From positions 96,001 through 160,000 of IMG/VR virus record IMGVR_UViG_3300025707_000003: a stretch of 64,000 nucleotides of DNA; one strand, written 5' to 3'. A program made the position numbers and the translations under genes. This document shows, in pieces, positions 9,718 to 51,448 of this stretch. How positions within the stretch are numbered: the first letter of the stretch is position 1; each line of letters opens with the position of its first letter. The notes below the pieces were generated by a model. The model searched no databases, had not been told where the DNA came from, and was given only the letters and a program-made list of their open reading frames with translations. The stretch is from a virus (Duplodnaviria > Caudoviricetes).

Positions 9718-10107
9718 TTACTTGTTGAAGTCAGTGCGAACACTACGAGGAATTAAAAGTACTTTGCGAAGAAGCAACTCAAGCTGACGAACTTCACCCC
9801 TACCTTCTCCTTCTACACAAAACAGCTCAAGCTCTGTTAGCCCATTAGAAGCAGTGAAACCAATGAAGTGCTTATAGTCATACTTTATCTCCCAATCGCC
9901 CTCTTCTGCAATTAAGATTTTATTAGACCAACTTTCGATGTAACTAGTGATGTCCTTAAAGTCTCCTCGCTTACGAACATAATAATCACCCTCTGAACCT
10001 TCGTGGATGTGACCCTCAAGCTCAAAAACAAGAGAGGAAGATTGTTTCTCAAGACGAGCGATTCTTAGCTCAAGTTCATTAATTATTTCTGATGCTGATC
10101 TTTTCAT
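9718..10107 (-). CDS. Tag-family protein 1 (MKRSASEIINELELRIARLE) with unknown cargo
   Basis: Shared 20-aa N-terminal tag. It starts 2 nt after tag protein 2. Confidence 0.8.
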   Translation of the reverse strand: MKRSASEIINELELRIARLEKQSSSLVFELEGHIHEGSEGDYYVRKRGDFKDITSYIESWSNKILIAEEGDWEIKYDYKHFIGFTASNGLTELELFCVEGEGRGEVRQLELLLRKVLLIPRSVRTDFNK

Positions 10108-10109
10108 GG

Positions 10110-10793
10110 TTACTTTAACCGTTCTGCTTCTAGGTTGTGATATTGAATAGCCTCTTCAAGAGCGTAAGCGACCCTAGACATTGAACCACTACTCGTTCTG
10201 AGCTTAGATTGTGAACCTCTACCCTCTAAGATTGGCTCTAAAATGTCAGATAACTTATTATAACCCACCGCTAAAACATAAGTAATGATAGAGAAAATAA
10301 CAGTAACACTCGCATATAAAAGCACACCACTCAGCAGGGGAGTCACTACAAAATAAATTTGTTGCAGTATCGCCACCAAAACTAATATCGCAGGAACTCC
10401 CTGAGTAAACTTTCTCAAAGCAACTTCAGAAGGGGACTGATCTCTAGCTAGTTTAAGTTCGGCAGTCGAAACTAGCATATCTAAAGCCAACCCAATACGA
10501 CCTTTCAAAGTCCTCTCCGTTTTCATGATATGATCTTCTAAGATTTGATACTCAGGATCATAATCGTAAATATACACTAGTTGCTTTGCAAGAGTGCTCG
10601 CCCCCTTCATGCTTCTAGTATTAGATACCTTTTTGAGTAAAGCAATAATCTCTCTCATGTAAGGTATCTTATCAAATAACTTTACGAGATTTCTCTTAAC
10701 TGAATCTAGGGAGTCACCCAAAAAAGCTTCTCTTTCAAGATGGGCGATTCTTATCTCAAGTTCATTAATGATTTCTGATGCTCTTCTTCTCAT
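10110..10793 (-). CDS. Tag-family protein 2 with membrane-helix cargo
   Basis: Tag MRRRASEIINELEIRIAHLE. Two hydrophobic stretches lie near the C-terminus. Confidence 0.8.
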   Translation of the reverse strand: MRRRASEIINELEIRIAHLEREAFLGDSLDSVKRNLVKLFDKIPYMREIIALLKKVSNTRSMKGASTLAKQLVYIYDYDPEYQILEDHIMKTERTLKGRIGLALDMLVSTAELKLARDQSPSEVALRKFTQGVPAILVLVAILQQIYFVVTPLLSGVLLYASVTVIFSIITYVLAVGYNKLSDILEPILEGRGSQSKLRTSSGSMSRVAYALEEAIQYHNLEAERLK

Positions 10794-10855
10794 TCTTTGT
10801 CTCCATTTTGGTTAAGGTTAAACAGGTCACTTATGACCAATTATAAATAAACTAT
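10794..10855 (-). promoter_or_regulatory. Tag-family promoter/RBS cassette
   Basis: Minus strand reads atagtttatttat..taagtgacctgtttaaccttaaccaaaatggaga, matching the cassettes at 26000, 27517, 39534 and 51449. Confidence 0.7.
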
Positions 10856-10945
10856 CTATAAAGATCTCATTTGAGTTCCTTTCAAAGTTAGAGAGAACAC
10901 GACATTTGCTAGGTATAAATAAACACATCAAAGGAGGTAGCTCAC

Positions 10946-11515
10946 ATGAGAATAATCGTAGAGGGTCTTATCGGTGTCGGTAAGTCCACATTCACAAAAG
11001 AAGCCAGTAAACACTTTAACCTTACTCCCATGTATGAATCGGTAGGAGATAATCCGTTCCTTGAAAAGTTCTATTCTGACGATCCAAGCCGATGGGCTTA
11101 TACGCTTCAAATGCACTTTCTCTATGACAGGTTCTCAAAACATCTACCAGAAAATACCTTGCTTGATCGTTCAATCTTCGGAGACTCCTGCTTTGCCAAC
11201 CTCTTAAGAGATGATGGAGTCCTTACCGAAGATGAACACAGCTCGTACATGAAGCACTTTGAAATGCTTAAGCCTTATATCCCCCCTGTTGATATTTGTA
11301 TCCACCTCCATGTTAGCGTAGAGCAAGCTATGGATAGGATTTCTAAACGAGGCAGAGAATTTGAGTCGGGTATTGAGGAGTCTTATCTGCACAAGTTACA
11401 GGTTCAAGTCATGCAGATTCCAGATAGACTCCCTAAAGAGACTAAATACATCAAGCTCGATTGGTACGACATGGATGAGGGTCAGAGGCTAGATGTCATA
11501 AGAGGATTGCTTTAA
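10946..11515 (+). CDS. Deoxynucleoside kinase
   Basis: P-loop EGLIGVGKST, YxDPxRW..LQMHFL..R, LDRSIFGD, and KRGREFE lid. Confidence 0.9.
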   Translation: MRIIVEGLIGVGKSTFTKEASKHFNLTPMYESVGDNPFLEKFYSDDPSRWAYTLQMHFLYDRFSKHLPENTLLDRSIFGDSCFANLLRDDGVLTEDEHSSYMKHFEMLKPYIPPVDICIHLHVSVEQAMDRISKRGREFESGIEESYLHKLQVQVMQIPDRLPKETKYIKLDWYDMDEGQRLDVIRGLL

Positions 11516-12303
11516 TCCTCAACCGTCAGTTGTTGCACTAAGTTTGGTAGGTAGTCCTCTGCCCTCTCAGTGGTGTAGTTAAAGCTCTTGGACTCTTGGG
11601 ACGGATTAGGGTCGATGATATACATCGGTTTCCTCATCTGCCTACCTGCTTGAACCACCATATTAGTGATCCCTACAGAGAAGCTAGTGCCGATAAAGAC
11701 CACCATATCTGCTTCCTCTATAGCTTCCATAGCGTCATCTAAGCGATAGTCCTCATGAGAACCATAAAACTCATCGAACCACAGTGCGTGTGCTCTTAAA
11801 GGGATCTCGCATTTAGGACAACAAGGTAAGTCATTCGGGTCTTTGGTCTGCCCAAACTTTTGATAGTCCTCCCAAACCTCGCTCATCGGGATTGAACCTC
11901 TCGGTGAACCATGATCACACCCATGATTGGGACAACGCACTGCGTTGGTTGTGCCATGTATCTCGATGACATTTTGTGAACCCGCCTTGTTATGAAGGTG
12001 ATCCACATTCTGTGTGATGATGTCAAAGGTCTTGCCCTCAGACTCACACCACTCCCCAATCTCCGCTAGGGCTTTATGAGCGTCATTCGGTTCAAGTTCA
12101 AAGACACCTTTGAACTTTTCTAAATACCATTCCCATGCCTTCGCTGGGTTCTTATTGAAGTAGCGTTGTGTGCCTTTCTCAAGGACATCATTAGCCCACA
12201 CAGCATCCTCTCCTGTTCTCCATGCTTGGATTCCCGATGCTGTGCTGATCCCTGCACCTGTGACAACAAGGATGTTGTCCGCTGATTTGATTGCGTTTAG
12301 CAT
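11512..12303 (-). CDS. Sir2/CobB-family NAD-dependent deacylase
   Basis: GAGISTASG, TQNVDHLH, IEIHG catalytic His, Zn-binding Cys pairs, LWFDE and IGTS. Confidence 0.92.
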   Translation of the reverse strand: MLNAIKSADNILVVTGAGISTASGIQAWRTGEDAVWANDVLEKGTQRYFNKNPAKAWEWYLEKFKGVFELEPNDAHKALAEIGEWCESEGKTFDIITQNVDHLHNKAGSQNVIEIHGTTNAVRCPNHGCDHGSPRGSIPMSEVWEDYQKFGQTKDPNDLPCCPKCEIPLRAHALWFDEFYGSHEDYRLDDAMEAIEEADMVVFIGTSFSVGITNMVVQAGRQMRKPMYIIDPNPSQESKSFNYTTERAEDYLPNLVQQLTVED

Positions 12304-12542
12304 GATAGTGTCATTTCCTTTACTGTGTAGCCCTTCTTGAGCTTTTGTGGTGCTTTTTTCTCGAAGTAAGCCCGATCTTTATTGATAGCTTGCCCCCAGT
12401 CGCCAATGCGACCATAACGGACGACCACATCTCCATTTGGGCGACCTGTGGCTTCCCAAAACTTGTAGTGACCATCCTTATGCTCCAGTCGGATTCTGAA
12501 GGTTGGGGATAGGTTGCATTGTGTTATAGCGTCAATAGCCAT
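12297..12542 (-). CDS. Stand-alone WGR-domain protein
   Basis: HYKFWE...VVVRYGRIGDWGQ...QKLKKGY pattern. The true start is at 12542 with an AAGGAG RBS, inside the track ORF 12297..12836. Confidence 0.75.
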   Translation of the reverse strand: MAIDAITQCNLSPTFRIRLEHKDGHYKFWEATGRPNGDVVVRYGRIGDWGQAINKDRAYFEKKAPQKLKKGYTVKEMTLSC

Positions 12543-12552
12543 GTGTTCTCCT

Positions 12553-12876
12553 TTAGTGAGTGATTCGTAGTGTGAGTGCATCGAGCTTTGCGTTCTGCTC
12601 GGCTCGATATGACTCCATGAAAGTAACAAGCAGAGTGGGGTCGCTGAACAGCTTGCGAAGGTGTGACTCTGCGTCCTTCGTGTAGGTGAACTCACCCACA
12701 GGGATTTGTTGTGACCACGCTCCTCGGGCTCCGAGAAAGAGGTTTGCGGTACACCCAAAGATAGTCTGATGGATGACACCAAGCTCGGTGTCAGTGTCAG
12801 ATCCTTTGGCGTAGAAGAACTTACAGCCGTTCTCAAAGTTATCGAAGGTGAGGGTGGTCTTGGTCTTGGTAGCCAT
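12553..12876 (-). CDS. Hypothetical protein
   Basis: 107-aa ORF with a GGAG RBS behind a class A motif. Confidence 0.75.
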   Translation of the reverse strand: MATKTKTTLTFDNFENGCKFFYAKGSDTDTELGVIHQTIFGCTANLFLGARGAWSQQIPVGEFTYTKDAESHLRKLFSDPTLLVTFMESYRAEQNAKLDALTLRITH

Positions 12877-12917
12877 GTCGTTCTCCGTTCGGGGAGTGTT
12901 GGTTGGTGAGGATTGTC

Positions 12918-12949
12918 CCCCTTACATTATGATATAAATAAGGGGTTAC
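12918..12949 (-). promoter_or_regulatory. Class A (putative early) motif with a CCCCTTA-N14-TAAGGGG dyad
   Basis: Minus strand reads gtaaccccttatttatatcataatgtaagggg. Confidence 0.7.
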
Positions 12950-13001
12950 GATTCTAACTTTCCTTTACTTTGCAGGTGTTTATGGTTTTTGTGCGTGTAG
13001 C

Positions 13002-13018
13002 GTAACCCCTTGTTTATA
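13002..13018 (+). promoter_or_regulatory. Class A motif
   Basis: gtaaccccttgtttata upstream of the CNNM gene, divergent from the 12933 copy. Confidence 0.6.
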
Positions 13019-13067
13019 CCCTTACATGAGGATCGAACCTCGCCACCAACTCTTAATGGAGAACCAC

Positions 13068-13997
13068 ATGGTCAGCACACTATCTGCTTTTTTCATCACT
13101 ATCATCGCCTCAGCTATCCACAGTGCGTGGGAAATGGCTGTCGCTTCCTTGTCTAAGGCTGAGGTTAAGTCAGCCTGTAAAAACAAGGTCTTCGGATCTT
13201 GTGCGTTGAGCAAGGTGATGAATGATAAAGAGTCTTTTATTAGCACCAATACCATCTGTAATAACATCGCCAACATCATGGGTAGTGGTGTTGTCGGTAC
13301 GAACGCAGGTATGTGGCTTGGTAGCGAGTATGTTGGTTTGGTGATGGGTATCCTCACTTTCACTATCATCATCTGCTCAGAGATCATCCCTAAAGCGTAT
13401 GGTACGAATAACCCTCTCTTTGTGGGTCGTGTCTTCGCTCCTATGATGGTTTTACTGTCATGGGTACTCACACCTATCAACTGGGTCATAGGAAAGCTCA
13501 CAGCTCGTTTTAAGGGTGCAGAGCCTTCTGCTATCGTAGAGAAGATCTACGAGGGTACTTATAACCTTTCACTCACGACTGTTGAGCAGGTTGGTACTCC
13601 ACGAGTCAACATGACCACTGTCCGAGCAGATGAGCGACTAGAGGACATCAAGCCCTCTCTCTTTGAGAGTCAGCACTCACGACTTGTCGTACTTGGTAAG
13701 AGCCGAGATGATGTAAAGGGTATCATGCTTCTCAAAGACGCTTTCCAAGCTCTTGCTAAGGACGAGAACCCTACTGTCGAAGAGCTTACAAGACCTGTCC
13801 TCAAGGTTGAATCGAACATCTCTTGTGAAGAGATGTTCAAACAGTTCACCACGAACAAGTCTCACCTCGCTGTCATGGTAGATGACTTTGGAGGAACAGA
13901 TGGTGTCGTGAGTCTTGAGGACATCATGGAACTGATGACCCAAACCGAGATCACCGATGAAACAGACGAGCAAGTCTGTATGCGTGAGGTAGGGTAA
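13068..13997 (+). CDS. CNNM/CorC/HlyC-family membrane protein (DUF21 plus CBS pair)
   Basis: SAWEMAVASL, NNIANIMG, CSEIIPKAYG, TPRVNM, HSRLVVLG and VDDFGGTDGVVSLEDIME. The start is placed at the ATG following GGAG. Confidence 0.88.
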   Translation: MVSTLSAFFITIIASAIHSAWEMAVASLSKAEVKSACKNKVFGSCALSKVMNDKESFISTNTICNNIANIMGSGVVGTNAGMWLGSEYVGLVMGILTFTIIICSEIIPKAYGTNNPLFVGRVFAPMMVLLSWVLTPINWVIGKLTARFKGAEPSAIVEKIYEGTYNLSLTTVEQVGTPRVNMTTVRADERLEDIKPSLFESQHSRLVVLGKSRDDVKGIMLLKDAFQALAKDENPTVEELTRPVLKVESNISCEEMFKQFTTNKSHLAVMVDDFGGTDGVVSLEDIMELMTQTEITDETDEQVCMREVG

Positions 13998-14006
13998 TCA
14001 TATAAT
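13998..14006 (+). promoter_or_regulatory. Class C motif ATCATATAA
   Basis: Recurs at 44614, 46838 (AACATATAA), 47862, 52453 and 60573 (minus), always upstream of a gene. Confidence 0.4.
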
Positions 14007-17923: not shown

Positions 17924-19303
17924 ATGTCGTTATCTTTATTTATACCTACAATAAATGAACTATCATCACTTTTAGTTTTAAGCCATGCGAGTAATGGGGG
18001 TACTGTTCTACTCTCTCGCAACAATAAGATATGGAATAATCTATCTGCAAAGTCGATTATCAATGCTTACCACCCAGAACTACACGCTAGAATCATTCAA
18101 ACTTCATTGTTAGAGTTATGTAAGTCGGGAGATGGGTGTAAACTCGGTGCGTTTATCACTATTTCTCTACTAAGATCTTTTCATCGCCATTACGGTGAAG
18201 TCCACCCTAAGATTACGGATCAAGTTAAGAAGGCAGTTAATCTCGCTGTAAATGCCGTACCTAGATACGAATCCAACCAAGATATATTAAAAGAAATCGG
18301 ACTCCAGAGTGAGCTTGATGGGGAATCCATAGATAAGATCTCCGAAGCTATTTATCTCGCAGGCTCTTTATCTTCTCATGTCTCTCTTGAGAAATGGGAA
18401 GGGAATGGTTGTGAAGTTGTTGAAACCGAATCTTTCCATGCTTCACTAAGAGTACACCATGATAATGAAGCATATCTCAATGGCCCAATGTTCGCTTTAT
18501 TTAGTCGGCCAGTTTTTGAAGTGGATCACATACTAAATGCGATGGAACTCATGGGGTCATTTGAAGGTAGACCACTAGTCATTATAGCCCCTATGGTAGG
18601 TGGTAAAGCCCTACAAGCAATCAAGATGAACAACCATAAAGGAACACTTGAAGTATATGCGTGTGATGCACCGAGAGTGATTTGGGGCAAGGGTTGGTTA
18701 GATGACTTTGCTTCGTTTACTGGAGCTACTGTTGTTGATCAGAAGTATGAAAAGTTTGTACCTGAGTTCTATGGTTCAGCTATTAACTCCGTCCTTAACT
18801 ACACAGAAATGATTACAGACCCTTATGATGACCATGTAGATAAAACAGCAGACCGAGTAGATGAACTCCTTAGAGAAGCTGAAAGTTCACCTCACCCTCA
18901 CACACAAGATCAGTTGAGAAAAAGAGCCAACGCCCTTAATGGTACGCTCGTTCGCTTGAGAGTTGGTGGTCCTACCGAAGCTGAGGCAAGATGGCGTAGA
19001 GGATTAGCCGAAAAAGCCTTGATTTCTATGATGGATGCTAAAGTAAATGGGTATGTCAAAGGAGCAATCCCTACCCTCTATAACATAACCACAGGAAACC
19101 CATATCTTGATCGAGCATTGAAAGCACCTTTTAAAGTCGTATGTCATAACTTAGGTAAGGCTGAGAATGACTCTAGCGTATGGGATATAAAAGAACTCTA
19201 TGAGCCTTTCCCTGTTGGTAGATTGATTGAGTTATTAGACAAATCCATATCAATAGCCACAACTTTAGGTTCTGTGGGTTATATAGTCAGGAGCAAAAAA
19301 TGA
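17924..19303 (+). CDS. Divergent GroEL/Cpn60-like chaperonin
   Basis: SGDG at the GDGTTT position, GRPLVIIAP, LDDFASFTGATVV, QLRKRANALNG..LRVGGPTEAEAR. Confidence 0.75.
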   Translation: MSLSLFIPTINELSSLLVLSHASNGGTVLLSRNNKIWNNLSAKSIINAYHPELHARIIQTSLLELCKSGDGCKLGAFITISLLRSFHRHYGEVHPKITDQVKKAVNLAVNAVPRYESNQDILKEIGLQSELDGESIDKISEAIYLAGSLSSHVSLEKWEGNGCEVVETESFHASLRVHHDNEAYLNGPMFALFSRPVFEVDHILNAMELMGSFEGRPLVIIAPMVGGKALQAIKMNNHKGTLEVYACDAPRVIWGKGWLDDFASFTGATVVDQKYEKFVPEFYGSAINSVLNYTEMITDPYDDHVDKTADRVDELLREAESSPHPHTQDQLRKRANALNGTLVRLRVGGPTEAEARWRRGLAEKALISMMDAKVNGYVKGAIPTLYNITTGNPYLDRALKAPFKVVCHNLGKAENDSSVWDIKELYEPFPVGRLIELLDKSISIATTLGSVGYIVRSKK

Positions 19304-21479: not shown

Positions 21480-22502
21480 ATGCTCGCGGAATACATTTGG
21501 ATAGATGGTGGAAACCCAACAGCTAGAGTTAGATCTAAGACCAAGTACATACACGACACGACACCAACCACCGTTGAGAGATTGCCTCTGTGGAACTTTG
21601 ATGGTTCATCTACAATGCAAGCGATCGGCAAATCCTCGGACTGTGTATTAAGACCAGTACGAATTGTCAATGACCCCATTAGAGGAGGGGACAATATCTT
21701 AGTTCTTTGTGAGGTAGAGACTGTTGATGGCGATAAGCACCCCTCTAATACAAGGTCTAAACTTGTTAAATCTCTTGAGTCTTTTAAAGGTCAAGGAGAA
21801 TGGGTTGCTTTTGAACAAGAGTATACTCTGTATAAAGGATCAAGACCTCTAGGATTCCCAAGTGAAAGAAGATTCCCAGCAGACCAAGGCCCATATTATT
21901 GTGGTGTTGGTGCAGATGAAGTATCTGGTAGACCTCTTGTAGAAAAGCACTTAGATATTTGTCTGCAAGCAGGATTGCCTATTACGGGTATTAATGCAGA
22001 AGTCATGCCTGGTCAATGGGAATACCAACTTGGCGGGCCGAACATAGACGCTTTAACAGCGAGTGATCATCTATGGATTTCTAGGTGGCTCTTGTATCGC
22101 ATTGGTGAGGACTTTGACATCACAGCAACTCTTGACCCTAAGCCTGTCGCTGGAGATTGGAATGGGGCGGGTATGCACACCAACTTCTCAACCAAAACCA
22201 TGAGACAAGAAGGTGGCATCGAGGAGATCAACCAAGCTGTTGAAAAGATGTCTCACAGGATTCAAGAACACCTTGATCGCTATGGGGCAGGTTATGAGAT
22301 CAGACTAACAGGTCACCACGAGACTTGTCGTTATGATGAGTTCAAGTGGGGTGTTTCAGATCGTACAGCTTCTGTTCGTATCCCTGTCGAAACGGATAAA
22401 AATGGTTGTGGCTATTTTGAAGACCGAAGACCTAACGCTAACGCAGATCCTTATCTTGTATGTGAAGCATTGATAAGAACGATCTCTGAAACTTGGGAGT
22501 AA
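21480..22502 (+). CDS. glnII: Glutamine synthetase type II
   Basis: AEYIWIDG..RSKT, WNFDGSST, QGPYYCGVGA, NAEVMPGQWEYQ, WNGAGMHTNFS, RLTGHHET and FEDRRP. Confidence 0.95.
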   Translation: MLAEYIWIDGGNPTARVRSKTKYIHDTTPTTVERLPLWNFDGSSTMQAIGKSSDCVLRPVRIVNDPIRGGDNILVLCEVETVDGDKHPSNTRSKLVKSLESFKGQGEWVAFEQEYTLYKGSRPLGFPSERRFPADQGPYYCGVGADEVSGRPLVEKHLDICLQAGLPITGINAEVMPGQWEYQLGGPNIDALTASDHLWISRWLLYRIGEDFDITATLDPKPVAGDWNGAGMHTNFSTKTMRQEGGIEEINQAVEKMSHRIQEHLDRYGAGYEIRLTGHHETCRYDEFKWGVSDRTASVRIPVETDKNGCGYFEDRRPNANADPYLVCEALIRTISETWE

Positions 22503-22505
22503 ACC

Positions 22506-22700
22506 ATGAAAGTTCGTGTGGAATGGGATTTCTCTCAAACAGAGCTAGAAGATACAGAATACGACAAAGCAGTTGAGCAAGCAGGGCTTCCCCATATCGT
22601 CCTTATACCCATAGATGTGGCTTATGAGGATGAAGGTGGGATCTCCGATTGGATCAGTGACAAGTTTGGGTTTACAATCTATGAGTGGTGGGAAGTGTAA
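22506..22700 (+). CDS. Hypothetical protein
   Basis: 64-aa ORF whose TAA stop is part of the class A motif. Confidence 0.65.
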   Translation: MKVRVEWDFSQTELEDTEYDKAVEQAGLPHIVLIPIDVAYEDEGGISDWISDKFGFTIYEWWEV

Positions 22701-22728
22701 CCCCTTATTTATGTCATAGTGTAAGGGG
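22697..22728 (+). promoter_or_regulatory. Class A motif with a CCCCTTA-N14-TAAGGGG dyad
   Basis: gtaaccccttatttatgtcatagtgtaagggg. Confidence 0.7.
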
Positions 22729-22770
22729 CTGAAAACCAACCCCTCAAACTCCCCAAAGGAGAACGCCAAG

Positions 22771-23313
22771 ATGAACCACCTAACCCTCCTCAACACAGTG
22801 AGCTACGCAACCGAAGCTCACAAAAATCAGCAACGCAAGAGTGGCGGAGCCTACATCTGCCACCCAATCAGAATGTCGGCCGCACTTGCAAGTGCAGGGG
22901 TCAACGACCTACTTCCGCTCCAAATCGCCCTCCTCCACGACACCATCGAGGACACTACGGTGACCTACAACGACCTCCTCACAGAGTTTGGACAGGAGGT
23001 CGCAGACGGAGTGGTCGAACTGAGTGATGACAAAGCACTCGACAAAGCCACACGCAAGGCTCTCACCATCACCCACGCCCCACACCTCAGCCGAGCATCC
23101 GCTCTAGTGAAGATCGCAGACAACTGCGACAACTGTAACGGGATCATGGGCGACCACCCTCCCAAAGGGTGGAATCAAGAGAGGATCACAGCCTACGGAG
23201 AGTGGGCAAGGAAGGTAGCAGAGGGAGCTTACAAAGCTCTTAAGAGCGAGGGGGACAGAGAGATCGCCCGAAACCTCGCACGAGGAAGCAAACTCCCAAC
23301 CAACCTCGGCTAA
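22771..23313 (+). CDS. HD-domain hydrolase, RelA/SpoT small alarmone hydrolase (Mesh1-like)
   Basis: AHKNQQRK..YICHP, ALLHDTIEDT, LSDDK and VKIAD..DN. Confidence 0.88.
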   Translation: MNHLTLLNTVSYATEAHKNQQRKSGGAYICHPIRMSAALASAGVNDLLPLQIALLHDTIEDTTVTYNDLLTEFGQEVADGVVELSDDKALDKATRKALTITHAPHLSRASALVKIADNCDNCNGIMGDHPPKGWNQERITAYGEWARKVAEGAYKALKSEGDREIARNLARGSKLPTNLG

Positions 23314-23942: not shown

Positions 23943-24238
23943 GACTTAGGTGTCTCTATCTTGTAGTTTGCCCTCATGTATTCATCAACACCTTTAGCTG
24001 TCGTAGGCAAACTAAGATCAATAAAACTTGAGTTCATGTGAGGCATCTCTAAAACAAATCGCCTCAAGTTTTGATATTCAAGCCTCAGCATATCCAAACG
24101 GTATTCCTCACTTGAAGCACAGGAAAAGTGTGTCGGACACTTTATCATCCCTCCTTTTTTGAGAAAAATGTATCCGTCACCTTTACATTTACAGTCTAAC
24201 ATACTGTTCGTGATTTTCATTACTGTCTTTCGTTTCAC
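23876..24238 (-). CDS. Hypothetical protein with Cys motifs
   Basis: GTG start after AGGAGG; CKCKGDG..CPTH. Confidence 0.6.
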   Translation of the reverse strand: MKRKTVMKITNSMLDCKCKGDGYIFLKKGGMIKCPTHFSCASSEEYRLDMLRLEYQNLRRFVLEMPHMNSSFIDLSLPTTAKGVDEYMRANYKIETPKSWVRAIQHYVREYLLNCKVKED

Positions 24239-24650: not shown

Positions 24651-24689
24651 CTACGACCTCTTTTAAAGAGACCGCAATGGAGAATAAAA

Positions 24690-25643: not shown

Positions 25644-25649
25644 TAAAAA

Positions 25650-38400: not shown

Positions 38401-38553
38401 AGACAATTCAGACACCCTATGGCAGGTGGTAAAACCTTTGCTACAGGTGGAAGGTATACAGGTCGAAGTGGGTCTGACGCTAAAAGGGTTGCACCTAAAT
38501 CACCTCGCTATAGCCTAAGAGACTCTATCAATGGTCGCTTTGGGAAAAAGTGA
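35428..38553 (+). CDS. terL: Terminase large subunit containing an intein
   Basis: Walker A GRRSGK|T split by the intein, Walker B VILDEVAH, ILISSP coupling motif, nuclease GIDLG and HDDMSDA. Confidence 0.92.
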   Translation: MSLSSVAISASARAGKKSEKDADIIEFVEASWGLKMTLFPVQRVILKAHYGLELDDEKTFEISDWTRTKIETHTEKSYLRKIYEDGRCNIGEVIPGKQRREMILSIGRRSGKCVTGETLIPTNKGLVRIDSLGDPNGDEIQPLQVNVAQECGTTSRSAYFYNGGVKPTKYLETFCGYRIEGTGNHRIKVMTPECKIEWKYLEEIENGDVACINRSSQLWSNDYVDVSQHHTEKDQPKYLDETWGELLGLLAGDGHWTNEKAVGITVGEKAFEPYLMSLFRNLFGKVSYHPDKRKVDVGQVLAYGKDLRKFLDNLGWVIDCTTRTKSVPHTVLKSPMSVVCAFLRGLFETDGSAYDSAITLSTASYQLAHEVQLLLLNVGIVSNLSKSNREDRTEHRIRVKGSKSKRLFARHIGFISERKKKCLEGVLSTVSYRGGNEGVPFFYEYVERLKKFHPYLKHDLSPTTKYTPYWKIKKVADHSGLNQTTKSQLYNLIDRDYFFDPIIKVEQREAHVFDLNVPNGSMFIGNGFTNHNTTISACIAAYETYKLIKKENPQKFYGLPASNNIQIISVATDKDQAGLLYQEVSGHYRSCAFFGPYTANNTLSYARFQTPADVEKYGRYIENQDAKATLKITFRSCVAKGLRGAGNICVILDEVAHFTETGQSGAEEVYNAVVPSTSAYSAKDPENPTIPIGEVEGRIILISSPLGKQGLFYNLFMIGMGGGRAGDNILAVQAPTWEVNPTVPAQEFEKHYLKNAAVFFTEYGGEFTDRTRGWITDERDLLSCIDPQLKPQMGAPARKPHFMGIDLGLVGDGTAIAIGHLEGEEIVVDLVAQIKAGEGIYHDKERLEFDDVADWVLEFTKKFYIQEGMFDQWAGIPFQQALEKRGLKNLKSTNMTKQITSQMYQNFKDMMWDQKVKLYNRPNYETEGHEPYIQELLELQQTVHGKHLITVEAPQTKGKHDDMSDAIVRMAWLASNNIGKGRYFASGSKGSRQFRHPMAGGKTFATGGRYTGRSGSDAKRVAPKSPRYSLRDSINGRFGKK
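35764..37023 (+). mobile_element. 420-aa intein with a LAGLIDADG homing endonuclease
   Basis: Starts CVTGETLI, ends FIGNGFTNHN followed by Thr(+1). Contains block B TGNHRI and motifs LLGLLAGDG and FLRGLFETDG. Confidence 0.95.
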
Positions 38554-38562: not shown

Positions 38563-38997
38563 TTAGTAGTTTTCTTGAGCCTCTTTACCCGCTTTGTACT
38601 CATAAAGCAGTTCACTTCGATCAGTCAAACCGACTTTCCATGTGTATTCTAAGTTATTTAAAGAAACACCATTCATGCCCATGTAGTAAACGATTTCTAT
38701 GATAGCTCCGTCCAAGTCTTTGATCATAGACTCTTGGTTGAGGTATCTTGAAAGTATCTCGATGTTAAGGATGAAATTTTCTTTATCTTCTTCCGAACCC
38801 TTTACCATTCTTTCCTTAGCAAAGTTTAAAAGTTGTTTGGTGTATGTATTGCGATGGTCAAGACCCAAGAAATAATCCTCGTGCTTACTCTCCATCATCT
38901 CTAAGAAATGTTTAGGGGTGAGTCTTGCAGACTGACGCTCTAAACGAGCAATCCTCATCTCAAGGTTTCTTATTATTTCTGAAGCTGATCTTTTCAT
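38563..38997 (-). CDS. Tag-family protein 6
   Basis: MKRSASEIIRNLEMRIARLE; the start is reassigned from 39060. Confidence 0.8.
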   Translation of the reverse strand: MKRSASEIIRNLEMRIARLERQSARLTPKHFLEMMESKHEDYFLGLDHRNTYTKQLLNFAKERMVKGSEEDKENFILNIEILSRYLNQESMIKDLDGAIIEIVYYMGMNGVSLNNLEYTWKVGLTDRSELLYEYKAGKEAQENY

Positions 38998-39025
38998 AAG
39001 AGTTTCCCCACTTTGTTTAATGTAA

Positions 39026-39056
39026 CACTTATTGACTATCATAAATAAACTACAAA
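39026..39056 (+). repeat. 31-bp perfect direct repeat, copy 1 (contains a class B motif)
   Basis: cacttattgactatcataaataaactacaaa, identical at 39568-39598. Confidence 0.92.
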
Positions 39057-39098
39057 TCAAATGGGGGGTGCATTTGATGATTGGTGGAAGTCTTAAGA

Positions 39099-39533
39099 CT
39101 ATTCGTTGCTTCTAATTCTTTTAAAGAAGTTAGGGTTCTTCATAATCAAGCTGGCGATCCCTGCTGACTCAATCTCAATTTGATAAGCCACGAGACCAGT
39201 ATCTCGTAAACTTCCACTCTCAACCTCGTAGTCAATGCGACAGTTGAATACAAAATAATCACCTCCACCCATCCAAGACAAATCAAAATCACCAGGCACT
39301 TTTCCTTTAGCTATAATCTGATCCATCATCTTATCTTTGCAGTAAGAGAAAATGGCTTGTAGATCATTTACACCCTTAACAGACTTTTTGAAGTCATCCT
39401 TCTCCATATCATGCTCTACAGATACAACACGAGCATTAAAGGATGAATCATTATCCCAACCTGCCGATTTGTTTTCAAGACGAGCAATACGACCCTCAAG
39501 GTTTCTAATCACTTCACTAGCTGATCTTCTCAT
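39099..39533 (-). CDS. Tag-family protein 7
   Basis: MRRSASEVIRNLEGRIARLE. Confidence 0.8.
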   Translation of the reverse strand: MRRSASEVIRNLEGRIARLENKSAGWDNDSSFNARVVSVEHDMEKDDFKKSVKGVNDLQAIFSYCKDKMMDQIIAKGKVPGDFDLSWMGGGDYFVFNCRIDYEVESGSLRDTGLVAYQIEIESAGIASLIMKNPNFFKRIRSNE

Positions 39534-39567
39534 ATCATTTCTCCATTTGGTTTAGGGTTAAAGAGAT

Positions 39568-39598
39568 CACTTATTGACTATCATAAATAAACTACAAA
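39568..39598 (+). repeat. 31-bp perfect direct repeat, copy 2
   Basis: Identical to 39026-39056. Confidence 0.92.
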
Positions 39599-39628
39599 CT
39601 TTAGGGTTTGTGATGCAGATCTTCTCAT
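39581..39628 (-). pseudogene. 'Empty' tag unit MRRSASQTLKFVVYL*
   Basis: It has an intact class B motif, an ATGGAGA RBS and ATGAGAAGATCTGCATCA, but runs directly into the next cassette and stops after 15 codons. Confidence 0.75.
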
Positions 39629-39645
39629 AATGGTTCTCCATTTGT

Positions 39646-39719
39646 TTAAGAATAAAGAGATCTCCTATGGATAACCTATAAATAAACTATCAATAGTTCT
39701 GGTTCTCCCAAGTCGCTGT
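39646..39719 (+). repeat. 74-bp perfect direct repeat, copy 1
   Basis: ttaagaataaagagatctcctatggataacctataaataaactatcaatagttctggttctcccaagtcgctgt, identical at 40825-40898. Confidence 0.92.
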
Positions 39720-39786
39720 CTTGTATCGCAACCCCCCTAAAAACACAATCAATTCTAGATTCGGGAAAAAGTAGGAGGGGGGGGTA

Positions 39787-40806
39787 TTAACCTTGTGGTC
39801 TCCAAGACCTTATCTGTTGGTTTAACTTTGTTATTAGATCTTTGAAAACGCTTATACTTCTTTCTTTTTTACGCTGATGTATAGGGTCTGATGGTTGTCT
39901 CCTCTCTAACTCTTCGATCTCCTCATTTACTTTACGCTTAACATTTTTTAGACCCTCTGGAGATGTTTCTATTGGGTGTTCAAATGAACCATAACAAGAA
40001 ATTGTTTCCCTCCACCCATGTTGTATTCTATAACCATGCTTAAATAACTTACCATCTCTTCTTTTGGCATAAACTCCCCAACACATAGGGCAAGTACCTT
40101 TATTTTGTTCCTCTAAAGTCTGTTCGGGTTCGGTTTGCGGAGCGAGTCTTAAAAAGTCTTTTGCGTCTTCAACTGCACCCTCTTTGACTGCAAACTTTGT
40201 AATCTTAGTTAGATCAAAGTTCTCTAAATCTAGTTTGTAAGGTGAAATTTTTATCGCCACCTTTTTACCGTTTTTAGAAGTGGTTACTTTTTTGATACCA
40301 ACAAAAGCGTCCTCTAAATAAAACTTCCACCATTCTTTTCTTTTCTCATAAAACATACTGGTCAAAATAATCGAGATACGACCAAAAGTAGGTTTACTTG
40401 GTTTTCTATCTACAAAGTCTACATAGGGGATTGCTTTTTTAATCCTTTCAATCTCTTCTTCGTACTTTTGAAATGCCTCTTCAAATGTAGGGTATTCATC
40501 TACCGATACTAGTATAAAATAAATGCTTTGACCTAGCTTCTCAAAATCCTCAAAGGCAGTCTTGTGTTTGAGATTATCATTTGCATCCTGTGCCTCTTTC
40601 ATTTCAAAGTTAAAGCCTAAAGCTTCAAGCACCTCTTGTAAGATGTTAAAATTACCTTTTTTCGGCATTGGGGTTCTTCTTGAGTGGTTAGCCAAAGCTA
40701 ACATCATACTTTTAGCTTCATTGCTCAATGAAGATGTAGCTTGTTTTTCAAGACGGGCAACTCTCATCTCAAGCTCTCTGATGACTTCACTTGCTGTTCT
40801 TCTCAT
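39787..40806 (-). CDS. Tag-family protein 8 with a C-terminal Cys/His motif
   Basis: MRRTASEVIRELEMRVARLE; TCPMCW..KHGY..CYGS. Confidence 0.8.
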   Translation of the reverse strand: MRRTASEVIRELEMRVARLEKQATSSLSNEAKSMMLALANHSRRTPMPKKGNFNILQEVLEALGFNFEMKEAQDANDNLKHKTAFEDFEKLGQSIYFILVSVDEYPTFEEAFQKYEEEIERIKKAIPYVDFVDRKPSKPTFGRISIILTSMFYEKRKEWWKFYLEDAFVGIKKVTTSKNGKKVAIKISPYKLDLENFDLTKITKFAVKEGAVEDAKDFLRLAPQTEPEQTLEEQNKGTCPMCWGVYAKRRDGKLFKHGYRIQHGWRETISCYGSFEHPIETSPEGLKNVKRKVNEEIEELERRQPSDPIHQRKKERSISVFKDLITKLNQQIRSWRPQG

Positions 40807-40824
40807 AGGTCATTCTCCTGTGGG

Positions 40825-40898
40825 TTAAGAATAAAGAGATCTCCTATGGATAACCTATAAATAAACTATCAATAGTTCTGGTTCTCCCAAGTCGCTGT
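40825..40898 (+). repeat. 74-bp perfect direct repeat, copy 2 (includes the last codons of the 40869 gene)
   Basis: Identical to 39646-39719. Confidence 0.92.
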
Positions 40899-42245
40899 AC
40901 GACCACGCTTCTCCAACGCATCAGATACCGTAGCCTTATCAGAGTCCATAGGGTAAGCACTGTCGGGTGTAACAGGATAAACAGCATCTGCTCTAGCTGT
41001 GTAGGTATCTCTCTGTGGCCAGTAACCATAACGAGTCTCAGGCCATGACACAGGAACTCCCTCAATAGGGAATCTATATCGTATGTCACCACTATCCAAA
41101 TACGCTATGTTGAAATGCTGTTGAAGAACATTACCTCTGTTCGATGGCATATTAACAGCACCACATGAATACCGTTCATTATTAGGTTTAACTATAAAGT
41201 CTTTCTGACTCACAATAGGACTAGGGCCGATCCACACCTCGTAGGAATGTTCCTTACGCCTACCACGATCTTCTTGACTAATCCTACGCTCACTGTCATT
41301 AGGGCCGACTATGATGTCATAAGGTCCATCATAACCTCCCTTAATACCTGTGCCGAAACAAATCGTACAAAGACTGTCTGGTTGCTTCGCATATTTAAGG
41401 GTCTCTTTATTGAAGGAGGTACAATAACAAGGTATCCCTGCTATCCTACGAGTAAATAACTTAACCCGTTCCCCCCCTTGTTCAAGTATCCAGTTATTAC
41501 GCCTTATCCCTTCTCTCCACATATAATCTACACGCTCAAGCTCTCTATCTGAGAAGGGCTTGCAATGCTCTAAAGGGGTTTCATGTAATACGCTTGTTTT
41601 TGGGTCTTCTGCTACTGTCGCTATACGATAGAAATCACGCTTATCTGTACCAAGTCTTAAGCGACTCTCTGGGTCATAAGCAATATAACTTATAGTGACC
41701 ACCGTATTGTCATCTATCGAAGGAGGTAAGCTATCTTCGGTTAAAGTGATGGCATCGGGTTTGGGTCTACCTGTAAAGAATAAAGTAACCTCACCAAACT
41801 CACCAAGCACTCTCGATGTGGGTACGATAACACCGTTAATCATTACCACAACATCTCTTGGTGAATCAGCAGGGTCATTGATGCTATTTTGTCTCGCTAT
41901 CGGGTACTCCACTTGAAACCGATAAGGATCTTCACCTTGATCCCCTTTAGAAATCCACTTGTCTGCTGGGATGACTTCATCATTAACTGCCCATGTGTCT
42001 ATTCGATCTCTGTATATTGTTCCACCGATAGGTGTGATGTTCACCCTACGATAAGGGCCACGATCAGAGTTGCCCGATCTGTATATGTTCACACCACGAA
42101 CAATCCAACCCTCATTTCCATGTAGGATTGATGGGTTATCCCAATGGACATCTATCTCACCCTTAGCGAAAGGGGAGACAGCACTCGTATTTCTTGGTGG
42201 TACAGGCCAAGGACTTCTACTGTCGTACCAACCATGTTGTGCCAT
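40869..42245 (-). CDS. Putative virion structural protein (FN3-like N-terminus, CxC..CxxC motif)
   Basis: IDVHWDNP..GVNIYRS..GPYRRVN and PCYC..LCTICFGTG. Confidence 0.5.
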   Translation of the reverse strand: MAQHGWYDSRSPWPVPPRNTSAVSPFAKGEIDVHWDNPSILHGNEGWIVRGVNIYRSGNSDRGPYRRVNITPIGGTIYRDRIDTWAVNDEVIPADKWISKGDQGEDPYRFQVEYPIARQNSINDPADSPRDVVVMINGVIVPTSRVLGEFGEVTLFFTGRPKPDAITLTEDSLPPSIDDNTVVTISYIAYDPESRLRLGTDKRDFYRIATVAEDPKTSVLHETPLEHCKPFSDRELERVDYMWREGIRRNNWILEQGGERVKLFTRRIAGIPCYCTSFNKETLKYAKQPDSLCTICFGTGIKGGYDGPYDIIVGPNDSERRISQEDRGRRKEHSYEVWIGPSPIVSQKDFIVKPNNERYSCGAVNMPSNRGNVLQQHFNIAYLDSGDIRYRFPIEGVPVSWPETRYGYWPQRDTYTARADAVYPVTPDSAYPMDSDKATVSDALEKRGRTATWENQNY

Positions 42246-42843: not shown

Positions 42844-43686
42844 CTAGAACAGATTCTTAAAGAACTCTGAAATGAAAGAAATGAATGCGTCATACTTGGG
42901 CATATGGTAAGGAAGTCCGATCAGAGATCTTGCAACAGGTCTTGTAGATAGTTGAAAAATAATATGAAGCCAGAACAAACACGCTATAAACCCAGCCCTC
43001 CAAAAGACATAGAGAACCCAGTCTTTCAAGACTCTATCTCTTGCTCTTTTCTTAATGTATTTAGGCCCACCTAGTCTTTTTACTTTCTCAGATCCTAGAG
43101 GAGGCTGTAGCGATTCAATGGTTTCACCAACCGCATATATTTCTTGTGGTTCTTTCACCCCTTTAAATTTATACATACCTACACAAGCAAATCGGGTGCT
43201 TTTTGGTGTGTGCATATTCGTTCTGTTTCGAGTGGCTAACATTGCCTCCTTTGTGAGGAGAACTTGACCTTTTTGACAAAGAGACATTGTTCTAGCGGCA
43301 ATGTTTTTTGAGAGTCCTTCAAGTTCGACTCTCTTAGCTCCAGCTCCAACATAGACATCATCTTGTTCTACTTCAATGATTTTACCCCAGTGTATACCGA
43401 TACGAGTATTGATCTTTATTTTTGGTGGGATTGTTTTTTGATAAGCGAGAGCAAAGTTAACTGCATCTACAGGTCGGTCAAAAGACAATAGAAAACCATC
43501 AGAACGATCTATCTCTCTGCCTTCATGCCGATAAACAAGATTTCTAGCCATACGATCATGGATTTGAAACCACTGAGCCGCCACCTTAGCTCCCACCCTT
43601 TGAACGAAAGCAGTAGACCCTATCAAATCTAAGAGAACGATAGCTAAGTATCGTTCTTTCATAGTAATATCATGATCAAAGGGCAT
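42844..43686 (-). CDS. Class III nucleotidyl cyclase with a C-terminal TM segment
   Basis: LLDLIGST, REIDRSDGFLLSF, RIGIHWG, LEGLSKNIAAR and GQVLLT. Confidence 0.82.
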   Translation of the reverse strand: MPFDHDITMKERYLAIVLLDLIGSTAFVQRVGAKVAAQWFQIHDRMARNLVYRHEGREIDRSDGFLLSFDRPVDAVNFALAYQKTIPPKIKINTRIGIHWGKIIEVEQDDVYVGAGAKRVELEGLSKNIAARTMSLCQKGQVLLTKEAMLATRNRTNMHTPKSTRFACVGMYKFKGVKEPQEIYAVGETIESLQPPLGSEKVKRLGGPKYIKKRARDRVLKDWVLYVFWRAGFIACLFWLHIIFQLSTRPVARSLIGLPYHMPKYDAFISFISEFFKNLF

Positions 43687-45893: not shown

Positions 45894-45895
45894 CC

Positions 45896-49375: not shown

Positions 49376-49376
49376 T

Positions 49377-49997
49377 GTGATGAATGATCTTGCTTCTCGA
49401 TTTTACCGATTAAAGGCTCTCAAAGAATCGTGTGAGAAACGCATAGACGATCTTGAAAATGAGATCGCTTTCCTTGAGCTTGATAAGGATAAAAAGACAG
49501 AAGCAGGAGTCATTCTCGACACTCTCGCTCAAGATGAAGTAGAGCGTGGTGTCTCGACCTATATATCCCTCTTGGAAGAGGGGTTAAAGGCGATATTCCC
49601 CGAACAAGAGGTAGGGCTAACAGCCGAGATCTCAAAGGTGCGAGGGAAGGTAGCTGTTAACCTCAAGACTACCTTTAAGGGTCAAGATGGGCTTGAGATA
49701 GTAGGGGCTGGTTTAGATGCGTTTGGCGGAGCAGTGACCACTATCCAAAGCCTGTTGTTAAGAATCTCTCTTATCCTTAAAAGAAATCTTAGACCAATAC
49801 TTATTCTTGATGAGACATTTCCTGCTGTGGATGAAAATCGAGTAGAGATCTTAGTCGAGTTTCTAAAAATCCTGTGTCAACGATTGGATATGGATATATT
49901 GTGTATCACACATGACGCAACCATAGCTGATAACTGTGATATAGGATATAAAATATCCCCTAGTAAAAATGGTGCTACCTTAAAGAGAATCAAGTAA
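49377..49997 (+). CDS. SbcC/Rad50-like ABC ATPase, C-terminal half only
   Basis: Coiled coil, signature-like AFGGA, Walker B/D-loop ILDETFPAVD and H-loop CITHD. No Walker A. Confidence 0.78.
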   Translation: MMNDLASRFYRLKALKESCEKRIDDLENEIAFLELDKDKKTEAGVILDTLAQDEVERGVSTYISLLEEGLKAIFPEQEVGLTAEISKVRGKVAVNLKTTFKGQDGLEIVGAGLDAFGGAVTTIQSLLLRISLILKRNLRPILILDETFPAVDENRVEILVEFLKILCQRLDMDILCITHDATIADNCDIGYKISPSKNGATLKRIK

Positions 49998-50398
49998 TGA
50001 AAAAACAAGGATCTATAAGACATAAACTCAAGCAAGTTAAACATCGACTGCTTAAGAAAGCCATACGCAACGGTATGTCGAAGAAGCCTTGTAACTGCAC
50101 TCACTCTGGTCAAGTCAAAGGCAACGCTAACGATCCCCTTTTTTATGTCTGCCTACTAGATGCAGATAAACCTAAAGAGTGGGACGGGGTGATATGTGAT
50201 CCCTCTGTTCCAAACACCTGTCCTTTTTTTAAATCAGAAAAAACAGAACAAGAAATCAAAGAAGATTTCGAGTTAGGGTTTGATAATCTCATCAATGAAG
50301 GAGACATGGGTAATATAGCTAGTAAGTATCCCGATGTAGCCGCACTGTTATGGGTACTTGCAGAGAGCACCGATGAAACTGAGGATGGAAATGATTGA
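49997..50398 (+). CDS. Hypothetical Cys-rich protein
   Basis: PCNCTHS..VCL..ICDP..TCPFF. Confidence 0.65.
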   Translation: MKKQGSIRHKLKQVKHRLLKKAIRNGMSKKPCNCTHSGQVKGNANDPLFYVCLLDADKPKEWDGVICDPSVPNTCPFFKSEKTEQEIKEDFELGFDNLINEGDMGNIASKYPDVAALLWVLAESTDETEDGND

Positions 50399-50825
50399 AA
50401 TAGTAGAACTAAAAGTGAAGGACAAAACACCCTTATTCTTAGAAGTAGATGTACCTCCTAAGTGTATGCCCTTACTCGTAGGTGACCCTAAAGGTGAAAC
50501 CTTACTTAAATGGGTAGAGAAACCATCTAATAGAGAGTCTGTACTTACATGGGGCATAGAAGCCTCTGTAAAGGAAGTTATAGAAGCTATGCTAGGGATT
50601 GCACTAGATCGTAGTGAAAAAGAGCTGTGGGGCATAAAACAAGGCTCATTCACCGATGCTGAACAAAGGTTGAATGAGCTAGGTATAGATGAGGTGATTA
50701 CCACTGATAATGTGGTTCACCCTAAAGACCCCTCTATGTTGGGAACTGTCATTGTAGCAGGAGGGAAATGCTTCCCCGTCATCCACAATGTGAGTCGAGG
50801 AATCTGTGTCTTAGACAAGGATTAG
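50391..50825 (+). CDS. Hypothetical protein
   Basis: ATG after GAGGA, overlapping the previous stop. Confidence 0.6.
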   Translation: MIEIVELKVKDKTPLFLEVDVPPKCMPLLVGDPKGETLLKWVEKPSNRESVLTWGIEASVKEVIEAMLGIALDRSEKELWGIKQGSFTDAEQRLNELGIDEVITTDNVVHPKDPSMLGTVIVAGGKCFPVIHNVSRGICVLDKD

Positions 50826-50848
50826 GTTTTAGTACAGACGAATTGTAG

Positions 50849-51448
50849 TCACCCTCGGAACCTTTTGAACTCTTTAAGGAGTTTATTGAGTTTTCGAGTG
50901 AGTAAGTCAACATCTTCAGAAACACTCCCTGTAGATTTGACTTCAAACCCAACGCTCTTGGCAAAGTCCCAGAAACTATCAGGGATCTCACCACTGTCAC
51001 CTTCGTCCTCAATACTAAGAGTCCATTTACCCGCATAAAAAGATAGGGTGATAAAAATAAATTTAGCGACCTCGTTGTCTACAAGAATCATTGCATAAGA
51101 ATCGAAAGATTCGATAACATCTACAGTGTTCTCACCAAATACATCTTGAAGTTTTAGGAGGATGGACTCTGCTGAGAAAGGGGTTGGGATCATTTCAGCG
51201 GGTATGATGCCACTGATCTGTCCCTTAAACTCAACTTCATCCGAGTCTGCATTCGCTTCGGTTATGTTCCAGCTCACATTTTGAAAAAGCTCTCCAAGTT
51301 CATTTTGAAGTTTAATAGCTATTTCTCTAGGTGAGTCACTCTCATCAAACGAAAAGTTATCCATCAGATCGGTTATACTCGCTGACTTCTCAAGTCGTGC
51401 GATACGACTCTCAAGGTCATTAATAATTTCACTAGCTGATCTTCTCAT
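50849..51448 (-). CDS. Tag-family protein 9 with acidic cargo
   Basis: MRRSASEIINDLESRIARLE; cassette at 51449-51510. Confidence 0.8.
   Translation of the reverse strand: MRRSASEIINDLESRIARLEKSASITDLMDNFSFDESDSPREIAIKLQNELGELFQNVSWNITEANADSDEVEFKGQISGIIPAEMIPTPFSAESILLKLQDVFGENTVDVIESFDSYAMILVDNEVAKFIFITLSFYAGKWTLSIEDEGDSGEIPDSFWDFAKSVGFEVKSTGSVSEDVDLLTRKLNKLLKEFKRFRG

Follow-up and report, generated by a model that had tools for sequence, protein, structure and literature searches.

Why should genes that encode entirely different proteins all open with the same short peptide? The question is raised by a 64,000-nucleotide stretch of IMG/VR record IMGVR_UViG_3300025707_000003 (positions 96,001 to 160,000; hereafter the window, meaning the whole of this stretch), which is part of a huge uncultured marine phage. 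An initial annotation, made from the sequence of the window, had noticed that nine open reading frames (ORFs) begin with a near-identical N-terminal tag, and had proposed that a portable module of promoter, ribosome-binding site and tag provides captured genes with late expression and an address in the capsid. The observation is real and much larger than first described. The tag, here called the leader, is a peptide under selection and is carried by genes that behave as exchangeable cassettes.

The leader peptide and its cassette

A six-frame scan of the 64-kb window recovered exactly nine copies of the leader, each opening an ORF, so that the number of tagged genes first given stands. The length of 20 residues does not, as the consensus (M-[RK]-[RK]-x-A-[ST]-E-[IV]-[IL]-x-x-L-E-x-R-[IV]-A-[RH]-L-E-[KR]-Q-[AS]-[small]) runs to 24 residues, of which residues 21–24 are [KR]-Q-[AS]-[SAG], and information content is at noise level from residue 25 on. 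Two starts were also corrected: the true starts of the ORFs at 27079 and 38563 are the ATGs at 27516 and 38997, not the upstream GTG/TTG codons of the mechanical ORF list. Two further traces had been overlooked, one a degenerate leader at residues 25–43 of ORF 51510–52427 and the other a tag-only remnant of 12 codons with its own cassette at 39590–39628. The features of the window are listed below (aa, amino acids; nt, nucleotides; UTR, untranslated region). Two relatives appear below: G001, complete at 375 kb and collinear with the window, and G002, complete at 312 kb with terminal repeats.

10107(-), 10793(-), 24690(+), 26060(+), 27516(-), 38997(-), 39533(-), 40806(-), 51448(-): leader methionine codons, from the six-frame scan
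9718–10107, minus strand: leader-tagged gene, 129 aa; no cassette of its own, starting 2 nt after the stop of 10110–10793; leader-bearing orthologue in L051
10110–10793, minus strand: leader-tagged gene, 227 aa; hydrophobic, membrane-type cargo segments; no Pfam family above threshold
10794–10854, minus strand: cassette with promoter motif TAGTTTATTTAT at 10843–10854, conserved 5'UTR and ribosome-binding site
24690–25601, plus strand: leader-tagged JmjC/cupin protein, 303 aa (Pfam Cupin_8, E=2.9e-20); of the cassette only the ribosome-binding part, CAATGGAGAA, lies upstream
26001–26059, plus strand: cassette with promoter motif (26001–26012), UTR and ribosome-binding site
26060–26728, plus strand: leader-tagged gene, 222 aa; acidic cargo
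27079–27516, minus strand: leader-tagged gene, 145 aa; together with its cassette an insertion relative to G001
27517–27576, minus strand: cassette; promoter motif 27565–27576
38563–38997, minus strand: leader-tagged gene, 144 aa; first unit of a three-gene array absent from G001
38998–39052, minus strand: cassette; promoter motif 39041–39052; UTR shortened
39099–39533, minus strand: leader-tagged gene, 144 aa
39534–39594, minus strand: cassette; promoter motif 39583–39594; UTR core copied exactly
39590–39628, minus strand: remnant unit; leader codons 1–6, then six unrelated codons and a stop
39634–39719, minus strand: copy 1 of an 86-nt direct repeat; end of gene 40869–42245, promoter and UTR; 95% identical to 40813–40898
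39787–40806, minus strand: leader-tagged gene, 339 aa; Cys/His-rich C-terminal part; sole PHROG matches (E<=1e-5) are families of unknown function
40807–40898, minus strand: cassette; promoter motif 40857–40868; overlaps copy 2 of the repeat (40813–40898)
50849–51448, minus strand: leader-tagged gene, 199 aa; an insertion relative to G001
51449–51509, minus strand: cassette; promoter variant 51498–51509; UTR core copied exactly
51510–52427, minus strand: gene for a 305-aa protein with the degenerate leader; hydrophobic C-terminal segments; conserved in G001

The leader is selected as a peptide, and a purely DNA-level explanation is ruled out because differences are in excess at third codon positions and at synonymous sites and because the codons switch between the families for serine and for arginine. 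The codon comparison was made on 16 cassettes chosen by their UTR alone, so that the choice was independent of the peptide. Leader codons 2–20 differed by 0.18, 0.12 and 0.47 per site at the first, second and third positions respectively, and the cargoes by 0.71, 0.73 and 0.74, that is, they were saturated; the codon differences of the leader comprised 778 synonymous and 441 non-synonymous changes. Ser6 is encoded by both TCA and AGT, Arg15 and Arg18 by both AGR and CGN, and each of the two alanines by all four codons. The proposal that synonymous variation in the tag reflects selection on the peptide was therefore confirmed in this UTR-chosen set.

The heptad a and d positions of the leader are taken by the hydrophobic residues I9, L12, I16 and L19, the e and g positions by E13, R15, E20 and Q22, and the variable residues 10, 11 and 14 fall at b, c and f. 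With its hydrophobic a and d residues, R15-I-A-R-L-E20 is in register with R-h-x-x-h-E, a published trimerisation motif of short coiled coils, and the match pointed out in the initial annotation holds (PMC6173795, PMC3653964). A helix was called for residues 5–21, which is only a hint, as the AlphaFold2 model of the JmjC cargo that gave it was built on a 10-row alignment and is unusable (mean predicted local distance difference test score, pLDDT, of 40). In the leaders of G002 the first half is variable and often shorter and I-x-x-L-E-x-R-I-A-R-L-E-[KR]-x-[AS] is retained; this stretch is therefore the core of the leader. No family was recognised in a PHROGs search of the leaders, and no Pfam family matched the leader part of the tagged window proteins.

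The cassette has the layout TAGTTTATTTAT, ~8 nt, ATAAGTGATCTCTTTAACCTTAA..AATGGAGAA, ~5 nt, ATG. It was confirmed in the window sequence that seven of the nine genes (those starting at 10793, 26060, 27516, 38997, 39533, 40806 and 51448) are directly preceded by it. The idea of a portable promoter, ribosome-binding site and tag module was borne out for the linkage of UTR and leader and failed for the promoter. The UTR core, with six occurrences in the window where 0.08 were expected, is specific to leader genes. For the promoter motif the window has 27 occurrences and an expectation of 10.2; untagged genes are among those it precedes, and it is a general promoter; G001 has 81 hits, head-module genes included, of which about one-quarter belong to leader genes. 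A hairpin in the 5'UTR that hides the ribosome-binding site was considered and found no support, since consensus RNA structure prediction gave no conserved fold. The ribosome-binding part of the UTR (ATGGAGAA) itself holds an ATG, which a 12-nt spacing brings into frame with the leader (window 26046–26062; P0030, P0048, P0101), and because of this some gene calls begin at that ATG and read M-E-K-x-M-R-R.

Unrelated cargoes, exchange and spread

The cargoes of the nine tagged genes of the window are unrelated to one another by BLASTP, so that the complete divergence after the tag described initially is correct and the proteins are not full-length homologues. On a wider scale, 71 tagged proteins fell into 56 cargo clusters. 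Among the nine window cargoes Pfam recognised only the JmjC/cupin domain of the gene at 24690, and among the 150 best hits to a profile of the leader only two gave a strong Pfam match (E<=1e-9; WGR and OB fold), three more being marginal (E about 1e-3). Cluster look-ups of leader proteins returned only unnamed metagenomic proteins, and an ESM Atlas search with one cargo found only sub-threshold, unnamed clusters. Homologues of the JmjC cargo retain the leader down to 61% identity; a search for an untagged distant homologue of this cargo found none, and gene capture from cells therefore has no support from it. The suggestion that any ORF can be captured was not upheld, as cellular homologues lacking the tag turned up for none of the cargoes, nearly all of which are without known relatives.

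The tagged genes behave as exchangeable cassettes. The window and G001 are collinear over ~55 kb at 70–87% nucleotide identity, and the conclusion follows because all nine tagged genes lie within five gaps in this synteny (9689–10910, 24651–26779, 27068–27583, 38574–40858 and 50810–51561), because three of these sites are empty in G001 (0–131 bp), which has other leader genes elsewhere, and because a direct repeat flanks one cassette. The two 86-nt copies of this repeat (39634–39719 and 40813–40898, 95% identity) contain the end of the upstream gene, the promoter and the UTR, and lie on either side of gene 39787–40806. The synteny gaps thus reveal a trait of T4-type internal proteins, in that close relatives differ in cargo set and share the leader. 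In each of four seawater runs the public assembly is broken at the leader/UTR repeats of 38900–40900, and its loose ends lead to other sequences. Two seawater runs have a joint that skips 39010–39552, with short flanks only, and one of the two has no contig over 39113–39313. The breaks suggest cassette polymorphism between samples, if weakly, since holes in contigs prove little.

A profile built from 67 leaders was searched against 1.84 billion protein clusters, a check proposed at the outset for conservation of the tag in related phages. It is conserved: the search returned 1,116 cluster representatives, 149 of them at E<=1e-10, and the match began at residue 1 in 144 of the 150 best hits. 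Complete genomes hold many copies, 31 in G001 and 27 in G002, and partial genomes 8–15. A degenerate leader DNA pattern was found in at least 70 stretches of IMG/VR contigs, contigs of 226–375 kb among them, and the same pattern drew no hit among 185,579 cellular species genomes. The 22-residue leader consensus, run by tblastn against 50,697 deposited phage records, also found no match, the query being too short to be informative. The clade is abundant: DNA near-identical to the window was present in marine/seawater metagenomes of at least 13 studies. No RNA run was among those listed with the locus.

Half-leaders, a second leader and the head module

The second half of the leader is not confined to N-termini. 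An internal R-[IVT]-A-R-L-E-[KR]-Q-[AS] was found in 14 of the 150 best proteins, lying between modules and always starting at the equivalent of R15, and the modules that follow are whole cargoes of stand-alone tagged proteins elsewhere (P0043 versus P0135, E=8e-47; P0009 versus the window gene starting at 27516, E=1e-21; P0042 versus P0008). Because such half-leaders stand at internal junctions ahead of modules that are also found alone, the second half of the leader is a unit kept by selection and has a function away from the N-terminus. It fits a processing site at which fused cargoes would be cut apart; it could instead be a second docking element.

A related phage has a different leader. 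LR745208.1 (485 kb, 55% G+C) has a head protein 89% identical to that of the clade and a RecA-like protein ~51% identical to the window's, and gave no match to the leader profile. It has a leader of its own, M-(T)-T-L-R-S-K-L-I-R-L-A-H-E-N-P-A-L-R-P-Q-L-L-P-L-L-K-E-A (~28 aa), on 11 proteins (E<=6e-15), with synonymous variation and unrelated cargo after it, most copies ending in [KR]-[EQ]-A-[A/G]. Examples from its leader genes (loci L176–L200) are the following.

398171–398575, minus strand: leader gene of LR745208.1
389893–390948, minus strand: leader gene of LR745208.1
351838–352536, plus strand: leader gene of LR745208.1

One copy of this leader is internal, in a 594-aa frame, and one leader gene lies between a head-decoration-like gene and the scaffold gene. 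As two phages with nearly the same head protein have different leaders, the arrangement in which many proteins share one leader is therefore older than either leader sequence. It is likely that the receptor of the leader is something more variable than the head protein. The string LIRLA of the LR745208.1 leader has only one or two further occurrences in that genome, one of them in the C-terminal tail of the protease, which is a lead and no result.

The head genes of the clade lie outside the window and were read in G001, where by synteny they are just beyond the window's start. The G001 major head protein has 292 aa (phrog_2522, E=2e-51) and its head maturation protease belongs to phrog_18299 (E=5e-14). 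Between the two is the following gene.

G001 locus L073:10555–12096, minus strand: presumed scaffold, 513 aa, extremely acidic; EF-hand_5 E=1e-7

The acidic protein, in which a second EF-hand-like loop was seen by eye, is presumed to be the scaffold from its position, where a scaffold gene usually lies. G001 therefore has the prohead maturation protease and, putatively, the scaffold core that go with a T4-type system. These assignments come from PHROGs matches on proteins; Pfam models of T4-type and HK97-type proteases and of the HK97 capsid found nothing on the G001 and G002 genomes. The head protein is 91–100% identical in 80 loci kept of 563 IMG/VR matches. The presumed scaffold varies from 413 to 765 aa in length, and its C-terminal tail is near-invariant across 37 relatives.

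Head-module proteins contain an excess of the motif [KR]-x-A-[ST] (16 occurrences versus 3.4 expected, z=6.7; 5.1 per 1,000 residues versus 1.45 in other genes). Three such sites are near-invariant in the 37 scaffolds, one of them just before the conserved C-terminal tail. The leader ends in the similar [KR]-x-[AS]-[small] in 97 of 150 copies, compared with 2.5% of background windows, and its position 23 is Ala in only about 40% of copies. Tagged genes lie inside or adjoin the head module in both G002 and LR745208.1. A complex prediction for the leader (40 aa) with the full scaffold gave a score of 0.00 at low pLDDT and counts neither for nor against binding. The sequence R-S-A-S at residues 3–6 was considered as a required cleavage site and rejected because it is absent from the G002 leaders. 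G001 also has a second short motif, R-V-A-[SRY]-x-[YH]-[ML]-[KRN], often after A-S or A-K (53801(-), 57143(-), 91926(+), 262141(-) and 276266(+)); two head-module proteins (1171 and 344 aa) have it close to the C-terminus and three small proteins close to the N-terminus, and it may be a second docking or processing signal.

The remainder of the window encodes a RecA-like protein and many auxiliary genes. The large terminase gene (35428–38553, plus strand) is split by an intein that carries a LAGLIDADG homing-endonuclease domain (LAGLIDADG_3 E=8e-20, Intein_splicing E=3e-9). An ORF at 42844–43686 (minus strand) has an adenylate/guanylate cyclase catalytic domain (E=1e-5) and hydrophobic C-terminal segments, and one at 2208–8783 (plus strand) encodes a 2,191-aa protein whose SNF2/DEAD-helicase matches are sub-threshold (best E=6e-5, below Pfam cut-offs). 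Genes resembling those for glutamine synthetase, sirtuin, PhoH, dCMP deaminase and chaperonin were recognised by eye. G+C content is 47–49% at 12001–14000, 22001–24000 and 56001–64000 against a background of 40–42%, and their acquisition may have been separate; by eye, the first two contain a WGR-like ORF, a membrane protein and an HD-domain-like ORF.

What the leader may address

We propose, as an evenly balanced judgement, that the leader may be a head-addressing propeptide of the kind known from phage T4, carried on exchangeable cassettes. What leads us to this proposal is the strict N-terminal position, the selection on the peptide, the unrelated cargoes, the presence of head machinery, the promoter shared with head genes and the T4 precedent. 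The scale and spread of the leader, the internal half-leaders, the [KR]-x-A-[ST] excess in head-module proteins, the different leader of LR745208.1 and the cassette turnover are also in its favour. The internal proteins of T4 (IPI, IPII, IPIII and Alt) are diverse and fast-evolving and have in common only a short N-terminal capsid targeting sequence with targeting and processing parts, which is removed by the prohead protease and can carry foreign proteins into the head (PMC3012670, PMC9026906). By analogy, residues about 8–20 of the leader would form an amphipathic helix, with its a/d core and conserved charges at e and g, through which a freshly synthesised protein attaches to the prohead during assembly, at the scaffold core or at the inner shell. 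The second part, R-[IV]-A-R-L-E-[KR]-Q-[AS], would then be cut by the head maturation protease on the C-terminal side of either E20 or the small residue 23, freeing the cargo inside the head. Some 30 small, fast-evolving cargoes per genome would thus be loaded alongside the DNA and pass into the next host cell. Each unit would consist of a general promoter of presumed late timing, the conserved 5'UTR and the leader, and the conserved unit head of ~130 bp would serve as a recombination substrate by which cargoes are inserted, deleted, swapped and fused. The first interpretation of the locus is in this way partly supported: the selected leader, the unrelated cargoes, the linked cassette, the conservation and the exchange are in its favour, and the parts that have to be given up are a promoter specific to the module and the capture of any ORF.

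Several observations weigh against a head-addressing propeptide. The same promoter also fronts the glutamine-synthetase-like gene, making the late timing an assumption. There is a conserved JmjC cargo family without the [KR]-Q-[AS] end of the leader, and that site therefore cannot be a universal cleavage site. At least two leader-bearing proteins have membrane-type segments, which would be unusual, though not unknown, for packaged proteins, and ~30 cargo types per genome, or 6–8% of genes, is far above the number in T4. Helices of the scaffold (RLAKIERLA, RIARIERLA) and the C-terminal tail of the protease resemble the leader, with a likeness below profile significance, and many leader-bearing phages lack the scaffold helix that comes closest to it.

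As in T4, a short N-terminal peptide with a bipartite logic is found on unrelated proteins, the cargo sets vary, and a protease and scaffold core are at hand. However, the leader has no sequence homology to the T4 targeting sequence by Pfam or PHROGs, so that the likeness is one of function and not of descent. The T4 sequence has 10–19 residues on a handful of cargoes, whereas the leader has 24 on about 30 per genome and comes with a linked 5'UTR cassette, internal half-leaders and a swap of leader in a related lineage. Packaging and cleavage are proven in T4 and predicted for the present clade. Giant phages such as phiKZ, 201phi2-1 and SPN3US are also huge, and package many proteins with N-terminal propeptides removed by a protease, some of 20–24 residues; the prohead protease of SPN3US takes off N-terminal propeptides 20 and 24 residues long (PMC10052503). 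The propeptides of these phages share only the three-residue cleavage motif A-X-E, though, no cassette has been described for them, and the head protein here is of another family (phrog_2522, 292 aa).

Comparable sorting also occurs outside phages. Encapsulation peptides of bacterial microcompartments and the cargo-loading peptides of encapsulins send unrelated enzymes into a protein shell by a terminal helix or short peptide and a linker, and encapsulin shells have the HK97 fold in common with phage head proteins. A terminal amphipathic helix and linker on diverse cargo are likewise found here, the helix coming from a low-confidence model. These, however, are cellular organelles with few cargoes, and encapsulin peptides are mostly C-terminal and uncleaved. 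In herpesviruses, the maturation sites of assemblin and scaffold are cut between Ala and Ser, and assemblin shares its fold with phage prohead proteases. A candidate [KR]-x-A-S is present in the scaffold, the protease tail and the leader of the present clade, one site standing before the scaffold C-terminal tail as the herpesvirus M-site does. The incomplete conservation of Ala at leader position 23 differs from this pattern, and the invariant L19-E20 would suit a Glu-specific cut as in T4 and phiKZ and is an alternative candidate cut site.

One alternative to a head address is that the leader acts as a sorting or regulatory signal for some other target, such as a different compartment or complex built by the phage, a site in the membrane, a phage or host chaperone, or a protease setting the time at which the protein is destroyed. 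The two leader-bearing proteins with membrane-type segments and the chaperonin-like protein at 17924–19303 (read by eye) are in keeping with this, and a lineage-specific swap of leader suits any co-evolving receptor. We nevertheless think it unlikely, as no candidate alternative receptor was identified, the promoter is common to head genes, tagged genes stand in or beside the head module in G002 and LR745208.1, and the [KR]-x-A-[ST] common to leader and head proteins points to the head. Another possibility, which we regard as quite improbable, is that the leader is an oligomerisation module only, a short parallel R-h-x-x-h-E coiled coil that assembles cytoplasmic proteins into trimers or mixed bundles and has no link to the virion. 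RIARLE is an exact fit to that motif, with hydrophobic residues at a and d and variable ones at b, c and f, and the c-Jun zipper starts with the same letters. Yet the helix is no longer than about two and a half heptads, such a domain would not need to start strictly at residue 1, thirty proteins with near-identical zippers would mix, and the conserved [KR]-Q-[AS] tail is left unexplained. Moreover, the leader that takes its place in LR745208.1 contains prolines and no canonical coiled coil.

The shared N-terminus might also be a by-product of selection on the DNA of an expression cassette that recombination keeps uniform, the peptide itself having no function. This would agree with the UTR and the first codons moving together, with assemblies breaking at cassettes as they would at repeated DNA, and with the 86-nt repeat being a recent duplication. 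It is largely refuted, and to our minds very improbable, given the divergence of 0.47 at third positions against 0.12–0.18 at the others, the preponderance of synonymous changes (778 against 441) and the switches between Ser and Arg codon families. The leader is also retained in genes that lack the cassette (9718 and 24690) and inside fused proteins, and the UTR has no conserved RNA fold.

Returning to the head-addressing propeptide, we put forward more tentatively, and with rather more doubt than confidence, a wider scheme in which each lineage has its own leader and a co-evolving receptor in the prohead, and any gene that gains the ~130-bp promoter, UTR and leader segment becomes a packaged and injected effector. 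That segment would double as a recombination site, and the result would be an integron-like pool of more than 1,000 effector families, delivered as protein ahead of gene expression.

Even if the leader is not a head address, it would be a sorting signal on 6–8% of the genes of a phage, for which no description was found in the literature searched. The pairing of nearly identical head proteins with two unrelated leaders provides a natural experiment for finding the receptor. If a 24-residue tag does load foreign proteins into a very large capsid, it would also be a useful tool. Should the leader prove to be a head address, the proteins that this clade packages and delivers to the host form an unusually large set that changes fast. 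The leader profile would then list more than 1,100 families of candidate injected effectors, almost none of which has a known relative, and would offer a route into the anti-defence and host-takeover functions of uncultured marine phages.

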